A stretch of 64,000 nucleotides of DNA from an uncultured Gemmatimonadales bacterium. Lineage in GTDB: Bacteria > Gemmatimonadota > Gemmatimonadetes > Gemmatimonadales > GWC2-71-9. The notes under the pieces were generated by a model, which saw only the letters and a list, made by a program, of their open reading frames with translations, was not told the origin of the DNA and searched no databases. Positions within the stretch are counted from its first letter, which is position 1; every line of letters begins with the position of its first letter. The stretch is from positions 320,001-384,000 of the forward strand of contig CAWCVB010000002.1 in the NCBI GenBank assembly GCA_963798915.1, read 5' to 3'. A program made the position numbers and the translations under genes. This document shows, in pieces, positions 7,150 through 53,311 of this stretch.

Positions 7150-7224
7150 GCTGCGGGGGCGGCCTGCGGCCGCCTGTTGGACGCGACGCCGGTGAGTGCA
7201 GCGATGCATTCGCCGGCGTTTTTT

Positions 7225-7461
7225 CAGGACGGGCAGGACGGGCAGGACGGGCGGGAGGAAAGGGCGAAGCCCGTAGGGGCGGGTCTCAGACCCGCCCCAC
7301 CATTGGCACACGTCCCTATGCCGGCATGATTCGACGAACGGGTGGGCGGGTCGACGCTTGCCCAATGGTCACCCGCGGTGGAACCCGATCCCGCATGGCA
7401 CCGGTAGGAGCACGGCATGCCGTGTCCCTACGATGTGTCACCCTGAGCGAGCGAAGGGCCC
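7225..7461. repeat. Composite repeat cluster: (CAGGACGGG)3, GTAG-type REP (7273-7298), GTAG-type REP (7404-7431), family B REP (7436-7461)
   Basis: gtaggggcgggtctcagacccgcccc, gtaggagcacggcatgccgtgtccctac and tgtcaccctgagcgagcgaagggccc between convergent genes. Confidence 0.8.
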
Positions 7462-7470
7462 GAAGCGTGG

Positions 7471-8234
7471 CTACCGCTTTGATCTCACGCTGAACGTGAC
7501 GCGCTGGAAGACCCGGACCCGCACGGGGACGCCGTCCAGGATTCCGGGCATGTACCGGCTGCGCATCAGGCCGTGGTATGCGACATTCGCGAAGGTTGAA
7601 TCAGTGAAGAAAAGGGCCGCGGGATATCCATCTTGCCGGCCTTGAGCAACCGGGGCTCCGCCGTGACGCGGCTGGCATCCAGCGGATCCCGGGCGGGCAC
7701 CGAGGGGATAACTGGCACAGGCGAAAGGCGGCTCGACGCCGCCGTCACAAAGAGCGCTTCTATCAGCGCGTTGGCTTCGCTGGCACTGGCATCAACCGCC
7801 CACGGCGTCGTGTCGTCCGTATCGAGAAATACCAGCTGCGGGCGCTCTGACCAGCCCGATCCCTTCCGCTTGCGCAGCACGATGAGCCAACTGCTGTCGG
7901 TGCTGTACATCGGCGGCGTGCGCAGATCGGGCACTGAGTCGCCCTCGACGCGCTGGCGGTAGCTCACCACCGCATGGGCCAGATTGATCCAGTTGGTCAA
8001 TGTGTCGGGGTCAAAGTCGGCGTGGAATGCGTGACGTGTACCGTTGTAGCCGACCGACGCCGTACCGGCCCAGAGCTGCAGCCCGTACGCAGTGTCGGCC
8101 CGGACCAGCACATTCACCGGCCCCCACGAAAATTGTCGCAGGCTGGAGTCGGCGTGCCAGGTCTGCGCCTCACAGGGCGAGACGCCAGCGAGTAGCAGCG
8201 CGGCCGCGAGCCTACCGAATCGCCGTCCGATCAT
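7471..8234 (-). pseudogene. TonB C-terminal-domain protein, frameshifted near 7630 and apparently internally shortened
   Basis: The ORF ends at 7566, but the shifted frame reads GYPAALFFTDSTFANVAYHGLMRSRYMPGILDGVPVRVRVFQRVTF..* (TonB_C-like) to a TAG at 7471. Confidence 0.65.
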
Positions 8235-11125: not shown

Positions 11126-12649
11126 GTGACCAGCATGCCGACTGACATTCCGTTCCCGCTATCGGGGCTCACGCCCGACGCCTGCGTGCGCGCGCTGGCC
11201 GCTCGGGATCCCCGCTTTGACGGGCTCTTCTTCGTGGGCATCACGTCCACCCGGATCTACTGCCGGCCCGTGTGTCCGGCGCGAGTTTCGCACACCGATC
11301 GCCGGCGGTTCTTCCAGTCGCCGGCCGCGGCGGAACAGGCCGGTTACCGCCCATGCCTCCGGTGCCGGCCCGAACTGGCGCCCGGCCGAGCCCCGGTGGA
11401 TGCGGTGTCCCGGCTGGGCGCGGCGGCAGCCCGCCGCATCGAATCAGGCGCACTCAACGGGCACAGCGTCACTGAACTCGCCAAAACGCTCGGCGTCAGC
11501 GCCCGGCATCTGCGGCGCGCGCTCGATCGCGAGTACGGCGTGTCTCCCAGCGAACTGGCACAGACCTACCGCCTGCTGCTGGCCAAGCGGCTGCTGGCCG
11601 ACACCGCGCTCCCGGTCACAAGAATCGCCTTTGCCAGCGGGTTCCAGAGTCTTCGCCGGTTCAATGCCGCGTTCCGGGAACAATACCGGATGTCGCCCAG
11701 TTCGCTTCGTCGCGCACCCCATCCGAACGGTCGGCAGGAAGGCAGCGACGCTCAACTGCTCGATGATGCGCTGCACCTGACGCTGGCCTATCGGTCGCCC
11801 TTCGACTGGCGCGGCCTGCTGGCGGTGCTGGCGCGCGATGCGATTCCTGGCGTCGAATCGGTGTCAGGCGATTCATACAGCCGGACCGTTCGGCTGGATG
11901 GACACACCGGTTTCCTGACGGCGCGCGACGGCGATGGCCATCTCATCGTCCACATCTCCGCCTCGCTGGTTCCGGTGCTGATGCCGCTCCTGCCCGGGCT
12001 CCGGCGTCTGTTCGATCTTGACGCCGAACCGCTGGTCATCGACGACCACCTGGCGCGCACCGATCTCGCGCCGCTGGTGCAGCAGCGGCCAGGCGTGCGG
12101 CTGCCCGGAACCATCGATCCATTCGAGGTGGCGTTGGGCGTGATCTCGAGAGAGGGCAGTGCCCCGGGGAAGCGCTTGGCCCTGCTGCAGAGAATGATGG
12201 AGACGCTGGGTGATTCTTTTTCGGCGGGAGCACCCGACTTGCAATGGCTGGCGCCGAGCGCGGCGGTGGTGGCCCGAACGTCGTTGGCGGGACTCACGAG
12301 TGCCGGGCTTGACGATGCGGCCGGCAGGACCCTGCTGCGCGTGGCTCAACGAATGGCGGAGGGGTCCCTGTTGCTGGATGCCGGCGCTGATCCGGTTGCG
12401 GCACAGGCCGGGCTCACTGATGCGGGTGCGAGCGATGAGACGGCGACCCGGATCGTCATGCGGGCCCTCTACTGGCCTGACGCCTTTCCCGCCAGCAACC
12501 CCGCGCTGCTTGCGCGCACCGAGCCCTGGCGTCCGTGGCGGGCGTATGGTGCGACCCACCTGTGGCTGGCCCGAGGCGAGCGGCGCCGGCTGCGCCGCTC
12601 AGCCGATGGGCCGGCATTACGCCGCCAGCCGCAGCGCGGACTCGCCTGA
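11126..12649 (+). CDS. Ada Zn-finger / AraC HTH / AlkA-like fusion protein
   Basis: ARDPRFDG, IYCRPVC, GYRPCLRCRP, AraC IAFASGFQSLRRFN, AlkA_N LAYRSPFDW. The glycosylase motifs are degenerate. Confidence 0.88.
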   Translation: MTSMPTDIPFPLSGLTPDACVRALAARDPRFDGLFFVGITSTRIYCRPVCPARVSHTDRRRFFQSPAAAEQAGYRPCLRCRPELAPGRAPVDAVSRLGAAAARRIESGALNGHSVTELAKTLGVSARHLRRALDREYGVSPSELAQTYRLLLAKRLLADTALPVTRIAFASGFQSLRRFNAAFREQYRMSPSSLRRAPHPNGRQEGSDAQLLDDALHLTLAYRSPFDWRGLLAVLARDAIPGVESVSGDSYSRTVRLDGHTGFLTARDGDGHLIVHISASLVPVLMPLLPGLRRLFDLDAEPLVIDDHLARTDLAPLVQQRPGVRLPGTIDPFEVALGVISREGSAPGKRLALLQRMMETLGDSFSAGAPDLQWLAPSAAVVARTSLAGLTSAGLDDAAGRTLLRVAQRMAEGSLLLDAGADPVAAQAGLTDAGASDETATRIVMRALYWPDAFPASNPALLARTEPWRPWRAYGATHLWLARGERRRLRRSADGPALRRQPQRGLA

Positions 12650-22173: not shown

Positions 22174-22680
22174 ATGGACCGCGCAATTTCCTCGAAGCGC
22201 CGGAAGAGCCCTCGGCTCCAGCAATACGACTCGGCTCCAGCAATACGACTATGCGCGGCGCCGATGGTATTTCGTCACTGCCTGCACCCTCCACCGGCGG
22301 CCCCTGTTCGGGGTGCTGGGTCCGGCAGGCGTTGCGCTGTCAGACGTGGGTGAGATCGTGCAGGAGGAATGGCGTCGCAGCGCAGGGCTCCGCGATGATG
22401 TGTAGCTCGACGAGTTCATCGTCATGCCCGATCACTTTCACGCCTTGATCGGTCTGCATGCGACCCACTCGTCGAACGCACAATCCCCCCTGTCTCAGAT
22501 CGTCGGTCAGTTCAAGGGGGCAGTGACGCGCCGGGTGCGCCAACTGGGCCCGGCCCAGCCGCATGCCATCTGGCAGCGGAGCTTCTACGATTCGATCATT
22601 CGCAGCGATCGGCGTTTCCGGCGGGTGCGAGCGTATATCAAGACCAATCCGGCTGTCGCCTGGCAGGAGACAGGTGGTAG
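22174..22680 (+). mobile_element. REP-associated tyrosine transposase (RAYT, IS200/Y1 HUH family) pseudogene
   Basis: RRKSPRLQQYDY..WYFVTACT..MPDHFH..IVGQFKG..WQRSFYD.IIR..YIKTNP. Broken by a 19-bp duplication (22211-22248) and a TAG at 22403. 3' end approximate. Confidence 0.88.
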
Positions 22681-22762
22681 CCTGGTGCCTCCGCGTCGGA
22701 GCCGGAACATGTCCCCGCTTCAGAAGCGGGTCTCCGAAGGGCAATCCGCTCTGCAACGGGAC

Positions 22763-23224
22763 TCAGCGTCGCGGTACCAGAAACGACAGGATCAGCGCCG
22801 CCAGGGCGATGAAATTGAGCCCCGCGCCCACCGCGTGCGAGTACTCCCACTGCCTTCGCAGCCCTTCCCAGTTGTCCGGGAGGAAGGTCCAGTTGCGGGT
22901 GGCCTGATTGGCAGGGAAGGTGAACAGGAAGAAGATCACCAGGCCCAGCGCCACGCAGGTCGTTGCGGCCAGCGTGAGGTGAAATTCGGTGGGCTGGTGG
23001 CGCACCCGGTACGCCACCATGGCATTGAGGAGCAGTGCGCCGATCACCGCAACGCCGAGGAATGCCCAGCCGGAATAGATCTGCTGCACCGTCAGGTAGT
23101 CGTTCCGCGGCAGCGAAATCTTGTTGGGCAAGGCGAACAGGTGCGCCAGGCCGGCACCCAGCGCAATGGTGGTGAACATCGCCGCCACCAGGCGCAGGAT
23201 CACCAGGCCCCGGTCACTCCCCAT
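22763..23224 (-). CDS. DUF1772 / anthrone-oxygenase-like membrane protein
   Basis: AHLFALPNK, YLTVQQIY.GW, TFPANQAT.NW, RRQWEYSH. Confidence 0.75.
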   Translation of the reverse strand: MGSDRGLVILRLVAAMFTTIALGAGLAHLFALPNKISLPRNDYLTVQQIYSGWAFLGVAVIGALLLNAMVAYRVRHQPTEFHLTLAATTCVALGLVIFFLFTFPANQATRNWTFLPDNWEGLRRQWEYSHAVGAGLNFIALAALILSFLVPRR

Positions 23225-23705
23225 TGGGTCTTCCGGCGTTCGCCGCCGCGTGGCGCGCCTGCGACAGGTAGGCCGGTTCCAGCTCCATCAGACTGGCCAT
23301 TTTCCGCACCAGGTAGGCTTCCCGCTCGCTGAGCTTCCCGTCAGCCAGGATGACTCCCCACATCACCTCCGCGAGCACCATCTTCTGGCCCAGGTCATAG
23401 TTCGCAGTAATCAATCGGGTGAACTGGAAGTGGTCGATGGACTCCGCCCGCTCGGCCTCGGCCAACCGCATGAGTTCCACCCCTGCCGCTTCATCGAGCC
23501 CGAAGTGTCGCACCAGCGTCCGCTCGATGTGCTCTCGCTCCTCCGGGCTGAATTCGCCATCGGCATGCGCCAGCTCCAGCAGCAGCGCGCACGCCGCCAG
23601 CTGCACCGGATTCGCGGACTCGGCAGGCTTGGCGGGACCCGGCGGACGCGGGTTCGTGTTCGTGCCCAGGTGCTCACGAACGAAACGTCGAATGTCTTTG
23701 AGCAT
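23214..23705 (-). CDS. TerB family protein
   Basis: AACALLLELAHADGEFSPEE, MWGVILADGKLSEREA. Confidence 0.88.
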   Translation of the reverse strand: MLKDIRRFVREHLGTNTNPRPPGPAKPAESANPVQLAACALLLELAHADGEFSPEEREHIERTLVRHFGLDEAAGVELMRLAEAERAESIDHFQFTRLITANYDLGQKMVLAEVMWGVILADGKLSEREAYLVRKMASLMELEPAYLSQARHAAANAGRPNGE

Positions 23706-23724
23706 GGGGTCTCCAGGGTGTGAT

Positions 23725-23890
23725 GCTGAGAGCTGACGGCTGAAAGCCGAAGGCTGAAGGCTGAAGGCTGAAGGCTGAAGGCGGACGCGTGTCTCGCAAT
23801 AACAATAAGTGGCGACCTTCGGCCCAGCCGTCTCGCCGTCTCGCCGTCTCGCCGTCTCGCCGTCTCGCCGTCTCGCCGTCTCGCCGTCTC
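23725..23890. repeat. (GGCTGAA)n heptamers (23725-23782) and (GCCGTCTC)8 octamers (23827-23890)
   Basis: Read directly; the 8 octamer copies are perfect. Confidence 0.92.
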
Positions 23891-23911
23891 GCGCCTTCCC
23901 ACTTCTTGCGT

Positions 23912-24337
23912 TCAACTTCCCACTTCCAGCACCGGCTTGATATCCACCACCGGCGTGCCATCAATGGCCTCGAGTGCCTCCACATGCAGGCGGTTGCCGT
24001 TCTCGATGCGGAGGAGCCGAGTGCGATGGATCCCGATCGGATTGGGCCGGTCGGGCGATCGAGTGGCGAAGACGCCTGTGAGCGGTGTCTCGGGATCCCG
24101 GCCGGGATGCACCTGCAGCGTATCGCGCCGGCCCTCATGCAGCCACGTGAGGATGATGATCTCGTCGCCGACCGCGAGCAGATGGAGCGCCGCCAGGTAC
24201 ACCGGCTCGATCTCGATCCATGCTTCGGGCGCGCCCTGGGACGGCTGGCGCGGCGCGTCCTTCCGTTGCGTCAGCGATGACTGCACCCATCCGATGGGGC
24301 GGAGTTCGAAGTGCTCGGGAGTTTCGGTCATTCGCAT
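23912..24337 (-). CDS. tsaA: tRNA m6t6A37 methyltransferase TrmO/TsaA-like domain protein
   Basis: LRPIG, GVFATRSPDRPNPIG, EAIDGTPVVDIKP. Confidence 0.9.
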   Translation of the reverse strand: MRMTETPEHFELRPIGWVQSSLTQRKDAPRQPSQGAPEAWIEIEPVYLAALHLLAVGDEIIILTWLHEGRRDTLQVHPGRDPETPLTGVFATRSPDRPNPIGIHRTRLLRIENGNRLHVEALEAIDGTPVVDIKPVLEVGS

Positions 24338-51197: not shown

Positions 51198-51689
51198 CTA
51201 CCGGTCGGGCGCCGTGACCGGCCGGCTCGCGCTTGCCTCGATAATCATGCGATAGGGGTCTGACGGGCTCTCGACATCCCACTGCAACCGCAGCGACGTC
51301 TCGCCCCATTCGATACAGGCATGGTAGCGGTCCTGGCCGCACTGATGCGGACCGGTCGCGATCCAGCGCCCTGCCGTATCCGGATACAGCTGGACCAGCT
51401 GGGTTGGGCTGCCAGCGCCTCGGCGCAGGTGGCTCAACTCCAGCCCCACGCCGTCCGGCATGGTCCGCCAGCATGTGGTGTTGTGGAATCGAAGTCCCGT
51501 GAGCGGTCCGGTGGCCCACTCTCCCTCTTCATGCCAGGTCACGGCCGATGGATCGGCCGCATTCTCTTTGACACGAATGCTGCCGGTCGCGGTGTGCACC
51601 TCGTCCCGGCCGCTCGCGCCACGCGCCTCGACCCGCACGGCCAGGTGCCGAACCAGCGCCAGGAGATGCCACGGCGATTGATTGCTCAC
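51198..51689 (-). CDS. DUF6314-like protein
   Basis: GTG start overlaps the MerB-like stop (GTGA). WHEEG.W, HLRRG, PHQCGQDRY, W.V.SP..PY. Confidence 0.6.
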   Translation of the reverse strand: MSNQSPWHLLALVRHLAVRVEARGASGRDEVHTATGSIRVKENAADPSAVTWHEEGEWATGPLTGLRFHNTTCWRTMPDGVGLELSHLRRGAGSPTQLVQLYPDTAGRWIATGPHQCGQDRYHACIEWGETSLRLQWDVESPSDPYRMIIEASASRPVTAPDR

Positions 51690-52363
51690 CTGAATTGATC
51701 TGCCGCCGGATTCCAGAATTCTCCCGTCAGGCCCAGATGGTCAAAGATCGCCTTCATTTCTTCGGGGCCCGGGCGGCGCGCGTTCGCTTCCAATCGGGTC
51801 GAATACCAGGCGCGGGCCAGCCCCCAGAGCTGGGGAATTGTGACCAGCGGCCGCATCGGCGTGCCCTGCTGCGCGCACCATTCGCGCACCATTTCTTCCG
51901 ACCGGAAGAATAGCATGCGGCTTCAGGTGAATCCGATATCGTCCCACCATTGTGATGCGGGGAGGAGGCAATGAAAGAGCCAGCTTGACGGCTCCGGTCC
52001 GTCTGGTCCCACCTGCAGGCGCAGCGGTTCGCCTGACTGTTCGCACCGGGAACGCACCTCGGCCGGCTGCCGCAGGGCGGCCGGGACACCCAGGGCATCC
52101 CAGGCGCAGTTGGCGAAGTATTGCGTGCCGTTGCAGACAACCGCGTGGTGGGTTGGCACACCCGAGAAAGGCGGTGCCATCCGGATGGAGCTTCCGTCGG
52201 GCTCGAGTACGAGCACCCGCCGCGCCGCGAGTCGCGCATAGGCGGCGAGCACTGCAGGCACGTCGGCCCTTACCCGCGCTGCCACGTCCTCGACCGAAGG
52301 GCGGTTGCCTGTCTCGGCGAAGTGGCGGTACACCGCCAGTCTGGTTTCGCTGTCGAAATCCAT
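51686..52363 (-). CDS. MerB-like organomercurial/organometallic lyase, probable selenoprotein (225 aa, Sec147)
   Basis: N-terminal HTH, APPFSGVPT, NCAWDALG (C86/D89), RCEQSG (C107), then WWDDIGFT-TGA-SRMLFFRSEE continuing in frame for 78 codons. A SECIS-like hairpin follows the TGA. Confidence 0.85.
51885..51919 (-). promoter_or_regulatory. Bacterial SECIS-like stem-loop
   Basis: UUCUUCC-GGUC-GGAAGAA (51910-51893), with the loop 19 nt after the UGA. The lower stem is extendable (CUAU/AUGG, CGCA/UGCG). Confidence 0.75.
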
Positions 52364-52365
52364 GG

Positions 52366-53311
52366 TCAACCAAGTCCTTCCACGAACCCGCGACGCCAGC
52401 TGGCGTAGGCGGGCTGCCAGCCCAGTTGCCTTCCTGGCCTTGGCGTTGGAACCACCGCGGCTCAGCGTCATCATGGACACGCCTCCTTCACCGATCAGCA
52501 GCCGTGCAAGCCAGGCCGGCACGTGGCGTGGCGGCTTGGCGCCCAGGACCTCGGCCAGGAACGGCAGCCAACTCGAGACCGGCGCCGGTTCGTCGTCTAC
52601 CACATTGTAAATGCCCGGATCGCCCCGGGACATCGCCGCCGCCGTGGCCGTGGCAACGTCTGCTATATGAATGAAGGACCAGATGCCTGCTCCATTGCCC
52701 ACGACGGGAAACTTGCGCTGAAGAATCAGCTCTGGCAGCAGGGCTCCGCGGGCAATGCCGGTGCCCGGCCCGTAAAGCGAGCCGTAGCGAAGCGCCAGGG
52801 CCTCGAGATCGGTCGCAGTGCGAACGCGATCTTCAAGGTAGCGGATGGCCGCGAGGGTTCGCCTGAAGCTCGCGGGCGGGTGGGGATCCAGGGGCGCGTC
52901 TTCGTCCTTGACCGGTCCCCCCTCCCGCGCGAAGGGCCAGCCGCAGTAGCTCTGCGCAATGAATCGCCGGGCACCAGCCTGGCGGGCCGCGGCGAACAGG
53001 GTATCGGTGACCTCGGTGCGGAAGCGATTGGTGAGGGCAAACTCCTGGTCGAACTTCCTGAAGTTTCCGCTCAGATGTGCGAGTGCCGTGAGTTCGTGCA
53101 TCACGACCTCGGGCCCGCTTTCTACGACGGCCGCGGTCAGCGCCTCACGATCGAGTGCGTCGGCGATGGCCGGCCGGGCGCCCTGTGCTTCCACCTCCTG
53201 CGCCTTCTCCCTGCTCCGCACCAGCGCGGTCACCTCGTGGCCCTGCTGGACCAGCAGCGGTACGAGGCTCTTGCCTACCGCCCCCGTGCTTCCCGCGATG
53301 AATACTTTCAT
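52366..53311 (-). pseudogene. NAD-dependent epimerase/dehydratase with a +1 frameshift near 52430
   Basis: VFIAGSTGAVG, LRYGSLYGPG, SFIHIADVA, SNAKARK. The shifted frame gives QLGWQPAYASWRRGFVEGLG* (TGA at 52366). Confidence 0.85.

Follow-up and report, generated by a model that had tools for sequence, protein, structure and literature searches.

A MerB-like gene with an in-frame UGA codon

The 64-kb stretch of DNA analyzed here, referred to below as the window (positions 320,001 to 384,000 of contig CAWCVB010000002.1, from an uncultured Gemmatimonadales bacterium), has a G+C content of 66% and carries on its minus strand a gene for a MerB-like protein that is interrupted within its domain by a UGA codon. 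The gene belongs to a family that, in our judgment, very probably encodes selenocysteine (Sec) at that codon. An earlier sequence-only reading of this DNA had described the locus as a hidden selenoprotein of 225 residues, with the UGA at the second catalytic Cys and with a Sec insertion sequence (SECIS) of the type present in Escherichia coli fdhF. The gene coordinates, the residues, the position of the TGA and the extension of 78 codons were all confirmed on the sequence. The features of the locus are the following, in window coordinates:

51686..52363, minus strand: coding sequence (CDS) of the proposed MerB-like selenoprotein, read through in full; 225 residues plus the terminal TGA (51688-51686), from the sequence and its translation
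52097..52108, minus strand: codons C86-A-W-D89 (C86, 52108-52106; D89, 52099-52097), by structure alignment the counterparts of Cys96 and Asp99 of MerB (metal ligand and proton donor)
52043..52045, minus strand: codon of C107, a residue kept as Cys in 80 of 81 orthologues and aligned with the Cys of the MerB motif SSHC
51923..51925, minus strand: UGA codon 147, the proposed Sec codon, at the position of MerB Cys159; TGA in all 81 orthologues
51893..51910, minus strand: putative SECIS apical hairpin, with a 7-bp stem (UUCUUCC/GGAAGAA) and a GGUC loop, inside codons F152-E157
51883..51919, minus strand: predicted extended lower stem of the putative SECIS, from a 50-nt fold; present in this genome only and absent from the consensus fold of its relatives

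The gene starts with an ATG at 52363 (predicted N-terminus MDFDSETRL...), and codon 147 is the sole in-frame stop inside this 225-codon open reading frame (ORF) of the MerB family. The 78 sense codons that follow it end in a TGA; as GTGA, it overlaps with the start codon of the next ORF, a GTG at 51689. The MerB-like identity proposed for the protein was borne out by a domain search with the read-through protein, in which Cys was set in place of Sec at position 147: the Pfam domain MerB (PF03243) matched residues 66-187, that is, across the TGA, over profile positions 1-125 of 126 and with 106.9 bits against a cutoff of 27. When the ORF was cut at the TGA, only profile positions 1-80 of 126 were matched, with 64.5 bits.

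The window sequence by itself is suggestive, a hint and no proof. Most of the called ORFs in the window end in TGA, and in 19 of 55 the TGA is followed by at least 40 further open codons. As the same is seen in so many ORFs, the open frame past the TGA was rejected as evidence; long frames of this kind are common because of the high G+C content, and the length of read-through is useless as a selenoprotein signal here. Regarding the hairpin, a perfect stem of at least 7 bp with G in the first two loop positions and located 16-37 nt after the TGA was found for 39 of the 1747 TGA trinucleotides of the window (2.2%), and for 15 of the 1747 when a 4-nt loop was demanded as well.

Codon 147 among orthologues

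To place the gene among its relatives, one genome per species was scanned for 185,579 species, which gave at least 597 matching stretches, at least 588 of them encoding a relative. The best 80 of these relatives were fetched with their flanks and, together with the window, form the set of 81 orthologues used throughout. The 80 loci come from metagenome-assembled genomes (MAGs) of at least nine phyla: Gemmatimonadota (19), Acidobacteriota (16), Verrucomicrobiota (14), Chloroflexota (12), Candidatus Eiseniibacteriota (11), and Pseudomonadota, Calditrichota, Ignavibacteriota and Omnitrophota with one each; four were unassigned. Their proteins are 57-71% identical to that of the window.

All 81 sequences, from the 80 genomes and the window, have TGA as codon 147, so that the TGA proposed from a single sequence proved to be invariant among its relatives. 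The genuine terminator of the same genes varies, with 35 TGA, 24 TAG and 22 TAA. A plain stop would be expected to drift as the terminal one does. C86, D89 and T146 are likewise conserved in 81 of 81.

The catalytic column was located by alignment with solved structures. C86 was aligned with Cys96, and D89 with Asp99, of both MerB and MerB2, and U147 fell on the Cys of the "FCS" motif in the MerB C160S mutant, which is Cys159, as well as on the equivalent Cys of MerB2. The Cys of the SSHC motif opposite C107 is one that we take to be Cys117. The pairing of Cys and Sec at position 147 extends to more distant homologues: those of full length mostly have Cys in that column, as do 44 of 150 cluster representatives (see below). 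Therefore, as in bacterial selenoproteins, the UGA occupies a column where homologues carry Cys, and UGA and no other stop is kept there among orthologues.

Coding signature and predicted fold past the UGA

The downstream frame is under protein-level selection. Residues 158-222 show a pairwise amino-acid identity of 0.62 among the orthologues and a ratio of position-3 to position-1+2 differences of 2.13, values that for residues 1-146 are 0.64 and 2.29. Homology and purifying selection thus continue past the UGA, which is a further trait of bacterial selenoproteins.

In addition, the whole chain models as one confident MerB fold. With an alignment of 65 sequences, AlphaFold2 gave the read-through protein a mean predicted local distance difference test (pLDDT) score of 95.9 and a predicted template modelling (pTM) score of 0.92. 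All 10-residue blocks between 141-150 and 211-220, these two included, had mean pLDDT values of 90-99, and a predicted helix (143-148) and strand (150-153) run continuously through the site, with block means of 96-99. When the model was compared with the PDB using Foldseek, all 11 matches at E<0.001 were MerB or MerB2 (E about 1e-11, template modelling score (TM-score) normalized to the target 0.56-0.73), and no other fold was matched at that threshold.

The closest known structures are those of MerB of plasmid R831b and MerB2 of Bacillus (3f0o, 3f2f, 5c17), which share with the predicted protein the fold and the Pfam domain (E about 1e-11, target TM-score 0.66-0.73, some 195-200 aligned columns). 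The window protein differs from them in having the proposed Sec in place of Cys159, a replacement that would be chemically analogous and not identical, and in an extra conserved C-terminal segment that reaches residue 222. Furthermore, it lies outside a mer operon, its identity to the solved MerB proteins is 21-23%, and it scores below the cutoffs of the MerB equivalog models.

A constrained hairpin downstream of the UGA

The perfect 7-bp hairpin with a GGUC loop that had been noticed 19 nt after the TGA was confirmed on the sequence: it consists of TTCTTCC (51910-51904), the loop GGTC (51903-51900) and GGAAGAA (51899-51893), the loop beginning 19 nt past the TGA. The 50 nt counted from the UGA fold with -17.3 kcal/mol (z = -2.23; 5 of 200 shuffled sequences were equal or better). 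The 71-nt fold was not distinctive (z = -0.96).

Selection acts on this hairpin at the RNA level. In the 81 sequences, the columns with conserved residues have a codon entropy near zero only at codons 152-157, which are those of the hairpin, with the following predominant codons:

F152: TTC in 80 of 80
F153: TTC in 81 of 81
R154: CGG in 79 of 80
S155: TCG in 79 of 81
E156: GAA in 72 of 81
E157: GAA in 60 of 75

Elsewhere in the gene conserved Phe columns mix TTC and TTT (51 and 30 in one example), conserved Arg and Ser columns have a codon entropy of 1.5-2.4 bits, and Glu columns favor GAG. The shares in the genes of the window are 34% for GAA among Glu codons, 32% for CGG among Arg codons and 31% for TCG among Ser codons.

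The pairing itself is also maintained. In a gap-free DNA alignment of 60 columns, bases pair in 99.1% of the 560 cells that represent the seven stem pairs, a value reached by 0 of 500 shuffles, and 45-72% of the cells pair when the partner strand is slid. All five unpaired cells are at the outermost pair. The closing C-G pair is replaced by A-U in two genomes (L026 and L080), a compensatory change, and the other changes in the stem are all G-U wobbles. RNAalifold predicted the same seven pairs, and its consensus fold keeps the apical pairs only. As the hairpins of 79 of the 81 loci are nearly identical, the covariation is thin, and the argument depends mainly on the synonymous sites being frozen. 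The invariant TGA, together with synonymous sites that are frozen only in the hairpin codons, takes the observation far beyond chance.

The scan of region 51500-52500 against Rfam (E up to 10) returned three weak chance matches, none of them on the hairpin; we know of no bacterial SECIS model in that database. We compared the hairpin with a published bacterial SECIS model. As set out in the text of a 2026 review (PMC13188914), this model has a loop of 3-9 nt, an upper stem of 4-16 bp, G in the first two loop positions, 16-37 nt from the UGA to the loop, and a minimum free energy (MFE) of -7.5 kcal/mol or lower. With a loop of 4 nt, a stem of 7 bp and a spacing of 19 nt the window hairpin agrees with the model, and the loop sequence is GGUC in 79 of the 81 loci, GUUC in one and GGAG in one. 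A region of 54 nt attains the MFE limit in 81 of 81 loci, and the bare hairpin attains it in 66 of 81 (range -5.3 to -9.1 kcal/mol).

The likeness to fdhF, stated in the sequence-only reading, holds for the loop and its distance. In E. coli K-12 fdhF (UGA-140) a hairpin also lies directly past the UGA inside the CDS, its predicted apical loop is GGUC too, and this loop starts 18 nt after the UGA, compared with 19 nt here. The predicted upper stem of fdhF is interrupted, whereas that of the window is a perfect 7-bp helix of different sequence, and, compared with fdhF, no lower stem is conserved among the 81 sequences.

Truncated and Cys-type relatives in protein databases

The search of a collection of 5.8 billion proteins gave 3666 matches, of which the best 120 were inspected. 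In 117 of these the match extends over no more than 63-65% of the query, and 111 are exactly 146 amino acids long; the shortened entries stop at the position of the TGA, with the ending ...DDIVFT. The other three, apparently full-length, have W at the site or an apparent frameshift around it. A second search, with HMMER against 1.84 billion representatives of clusters at 50% identity, produced 2189 matches, and the best 150 were classed. Seventy-one representatives end at about residue 146, nearly all with ...FT or ...YT; the 44 mentioned above continue past the site, with Cys aligned to U147; and the rest have W (4) or another residue (10) at the site, have no residue aligned there (8), or are fragments too short to be classed (13). 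One cluster, P0261 (77 amino acids), matches residues 150-224 alone. The expectation that standard annotation would split the gene in two was in this way borne out on both sides of the UGA, by the shortened matches and by a separate cluster for the C-terminal part.

The Cys-type homologues (P0129-P0252, some 220-235 residues) show 27-40% identity to the window protein along almost the whole of it, and have the same length and architecture over residues 1-220. They differ from it in the Cys at the U147 column, and 14 of the 44 also carry Cys at the D89 column (C-x-x-C). The forms ending at T146 nearly all keep Asp89, the exceptions being P0178 (N) and P0200 (E). The active-site design of Cys and Sec forms may therefore differ.

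A tree of Sec-type and Cys-type forms was built by a quick method from 118 rows and the N-terminal 146 columns, leaving out rows with fewer than 125 filled positions or with ambiguous ends; the 'Sec' label in it was inferred from the ending at T146 and not from DNA. This tree is poorly resolved, with 9 of 115 inner branches well supported. The two labels are interspersed and require 12-16 parsimony changes, at least three of them forced by supported branches, and we draw no conclusion from it about the direction or number of switches between Cys and Sec.

Comparison with SaoL

SaoL is the only MerB-like selenoprotein that we found in full-text literature searches. It belongs to the SAO locus, as described in a preprint by Haft & Gwadz (10.1101/2022.07.06.499078). 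In the compared sections of a 2022 review (PMC9312934) it is the only MerB-like selenoprotein entry, and the same single entry appears in the text of the 2026 review (PMC13188914), the supplementary tables of which lay outside the comparison and may list others. The main text of the description of BSepDB (PMC13326102) contains neither MerB nor mercury, and one supplement of it is likewise without MerB, mercury, alkylmercury, organomercurial or SaoL; in that of deep-Sep (PMC12013277) there is no mention of MerB or mercury.

The sequence-only reading had brought in SaoL as a precedent, and as an analogy the comparison is apt. SaoL (NF040728) belongs to the MerB superfamily, has Sec at the Cys159 column, keeps the counterparts of Cys96 and Asp99 and, like the family described here, is usually cut at the UGA in databases. 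The window gene is, however, not a member of SaoL: its protein reaches 43.1 bits where the cutoff is 140, with a match limited to residues 34-118, and the C-U of SaoL is replaced by T-U in the window family. No model of NCBIfam release 20.0 accepts the window protein. The surroundings also differ. The passages of Haft & Gwadz (10.1101/2022.07.06.499078) on the locus describe a SAO neighborhood of nine genes with an ABC transporter and an efflux pump, in hosts that are exclusively anaerobic. The hosts in the present case are MAGs of Gemmatimonadota, Acidobacteriota, Verrucomicrobiota, Chloroflexota and Eiseniibacteriota. Neither a SAO-type neighborhood in the window nor a recurrent neighbor in the 81 loci was seen, with the Sao-specific models having been run on a few neighbors only.

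Proposed decoding and possible function

The invariant TGA at the Cys159 column, the constrained hairpin, the coding signature downstream and the MerB fold support the reading of the gene as one for a selenoenzyme of 225 residues. According to this proposal, the ribosome would reach UGA-147, the GGUC hairpin 16-33 nt downstream would bind SelB carrying GTP and Sec-tRNA(Sec), Sec would be inserted at position 147, and 78 further codons would be translated before the genuine terminator. If the chemistry follows that of MerB, the metal of an organometal substrate would be held by Cys86 and Sec147, with Asp89 giving a proton to the carbon that leaves. In the MerB-type reaction the hydrocarbon is released and the metal is left on the Cys/Sec pair. 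A selenolate is deprotonated at neutral pH and binds soft metals more tightly; it could favor the capture of a trace substrate yet hinder the release of Hg(II).

In nature the enzyme may act on organomercury or on some other organometal(loid). That it is specifically an organomercurial lyase of the MerB type, EC 4.99.1.2, is something to which we would give much less confidence than to the presence of Sec, and we consider it rather unlikely that the family represents a widespread and overlooked Se-dependent organomercurial lyase, independent of the mer operon, in largely soil-associated phyla (Acidobacteriota, Verrucomicrobiota, Gemmatimonadota, Chloroflexota, Eiseniibacteriota). A genuine selenoprotein that is not a C-Hg lyase, in which Cys86 and Sec147 would serve another organometal(loid), metal binding or redox chemistry, is a substantial possibility, if short of probable. 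It agrees with the context of the gene, since there is no merA, merR, merT or merP in the window and no conserved neighbor in the 81 loci, the best family being present in 8 of them. A linkage to MerA was rejected, given that the flavoprotein encoded at three loci scored 342.9 bits against the MerA cutoff of 454. The MerB equivalog models of NCBIfam also point away from a MerB lyase in the strict sense (NF009710, 59.8 bits against 193; NF033555, 51.7 against 200), as does the low identity to solved MerB already mentioned. The same caution regarding Sec at this site is voiced by the authors of SaoL in the passages on its function (10.1101/2022.07.06.499078). On the other side are the metal ligands and the Asp proton donor, retained at C86 and D89 in all 81 sequences, and MerB as the only fold that was matched.

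As to selenocysteine itself, several observations weigh against it. No selA, selB, selC or selD was found in the window, in which 54 ORFs were scanned and no tRNA gene was present, and the Sec trait is for this reason unproven for the source genome. The flanks of the related loci contained three tRNAs in all, and a tRNA-Sec in 1 of 80 only. The covariation in the stem comes from just two divergent genomes. The codons of the hairpin also encode a conserved FFRSEE peptide, and since similar peptides occur in the Cys-type homologues, part of the nucleotide conservation is at the protein level. The hairpin is without the bulged U of the fdhF upper stem; this U and the G-U of the loop are contacts of SelB in E. 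coli. The bare hairpin lies exactly at the limit of -7.5 kcal/mol and in 15 of 81 loci misses it. Some database proteins have a standard residue at the site (W in P0002, P0141, P0142, P0148 and P0233; S in P0132); the W entries may be gene calls under genetic code 4 or real TGG variants. Finally, an apparent frameshift in the adjacent gene for a short-chain dehydrogenase/reductase (SDR) puts the assembly or the integrity of the region in question.

The one tRNA-Sec, a point in favor of Sec in the family, lies in a Chloroflexia MAG (L009), at 7178-7264 on the minus strand and about 500 nt from the MerB-like gene. It was called by ARAGORN and scored 58.6 bits with Rfam model RF01852 (gathering threshold 47), and this genome clearly has selC. 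An ORF of the phage integrase family (7394-8092, plus strand) adjoins the tRNA-Sec, which suggests that an integrative element uses the tRNA-Sec as its attachment site; with an integrase ORF alongside, the adjacency of tRNA-Sec and MerB-like gene may be incidental.

Other ways of decoding the locus have to be considered against this background. The UGA could be a true stop that splits the enzyme into a protein of 146 residues and a second one of 76, reinitiated at codon 150, with the hairpin involved in coupling or pausing. All 81 sequences have a possible start at codon 150 (ATG in 79, GTG in L038, TTG in L051), and gene callers do predict a separate protein of 77 residues, that of cluster P0261. 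However, exchanges among M, V and L at position 150 are equally what one expects between hydrophobic residues, and no Shine-Dalgarno-like GGAGG is present in the 15 nt before the codon. A split enzyme would have no residue at the catalytic Cys159 column, whereas the Cys-type homologues keep one continuous chain, and the predicted helix and strand pass through the site. A plain stop would drift as the terminal stops do, and codon 147 has not. We regard this alternative as very unlikely.

Still less likely is that the UGA is read as a standard residue, either under an alternative code (Trp or Gly) or by near-cognate read-through independent of a SECIS (Trp or Cys). The five database proteins with W at the site would agree with it, but they may stem from gene calling under code 4. 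TGA is the real terminator of the same genes in 35 of 81 loci and ends most ORFs of the window, the conserved fdhF-like hairpin would be left with no role, and to our knowledge the host phyla, at least nine, do not reassign UGA. A pseudogene or sequencing error, in which a Cys codon (TGC or TGT) was mutated or misread to TGA in a dead or mis-assembled gene, is hardly credible: the TGA is one base from a Cys codon, the adjacent SDR gene appears frameshifted and open frames past TGA are common in the window, but the same TGA recurs in 80 of 80 independent genomes of these phyla, whose proteins are too diverged from that of the window to be copies of a single contaminant, the 78 codons downstream have a normal coding signature, and nearly all of the best protein matches stop at the same place. 

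Implications of a probable selenocysteine-containing family

Taking selenocysteine at codon 147 as the best explanation, we rate as new a large and so far unannotated family of selenoenzymes of the MerB superfamily with a SECIS in the coding region, SaoL being already known. Its annotation would be systematically wrong, with 117 of the 120 best matches cut at the UGA and a relative carried by at least 588 species-level genomes. Recognition of the family would correct many records and would extend the selenoproteome to phyla that the text of the 2026 review (PMC13188914) does not name. That SaoL and the present family, as separate branches of MerB, both had Sec in this catalytic column would point to a recurring advantage of a selenolate at a metal site.

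Surveys of merB would miss the family because the annotated protein ends before the second catalytic residue; those that require Cys96, Asp99 and Cys159 cannot score a protein ending at residue 146. In the part of one mer-gene survey compared here, no MerB is listed for Acidobacteria. If C-Hg bonds were cleaved by these enzymes, estimates of demethylation potential would change, and a Se-dependent lyase would be a candidate for the poorly assigned demethylation of methylmercury in the environments of these largely soil-associated phyla and a direct molecular link between the cycles of Se and Hg. The putative SECIS has a loop and a spacing close to those of fdhF, which makes it realistic to express the gene in E. 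coli with Sec inserted.

Neighboring genes

For the analysis of the genomic context, the 841 ORFs of the 81 loci were clustered. The most frequent neighbor family, a Zn-dependent dehydrogenase, is the one present in 8 loci, followed by an AhpC-cNMP protein (6 loci), an alpha/beta hydrolase (5) and an ICMT-type methyltransferase (5). The neighbors of the gene in the window, which encode the SDR, a DUF6314 protein, a protein of 127 residues, an M13 peptidase and a glycoside hydrolase, had no tblastn match in the 80 related loci at E<=1e-5. The ORF immediately downstream (51198-51689, minus strand, GTG start) encodes 163 residues with the Pfam domain DUF6314. No homologue of it was found within 6 kb of the gene in those loci, so the pairing of the MerB-like gene with DUF6314 is specific to this genome.

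Upstream of the MerB-like gene, the NAD-dependent epimerase/SDR gene (52367-53311, minus strand) has a break near 52420-52440. Its frame runs without a stop into the MerB-like ORF, giving an ORF of 462 residues in which the NCBIfam match ends at profile position 289 of 304, and another frame gives a plausible SDR C-terminus with a TGA 3 nt before the MerB-like ATG. The 462-residue ORF does not look like a fusion protein; the break has the look of a 1-nt frameshift, which may be a real lesion or an error of sequencing.

Further away in the window there are two genes of the DNA-alkylation repair type (161-967 and 11126-12646, both on the plus strand), one with AlkA_N and HhH-GPD domains and the other Ada-like, with Ada zinc-binding, AraC helix-turn-helix and AlkA_N domains. 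In addition, an ORF of 302 residues (22424-23329, plus strand) presents at its start a partial match to an IS200-like Y1 transposase (profile positions 49-120 of 121), and it is adjoined by a gene of the TerB tellurite-resistance family (23217-23915, minus strand).

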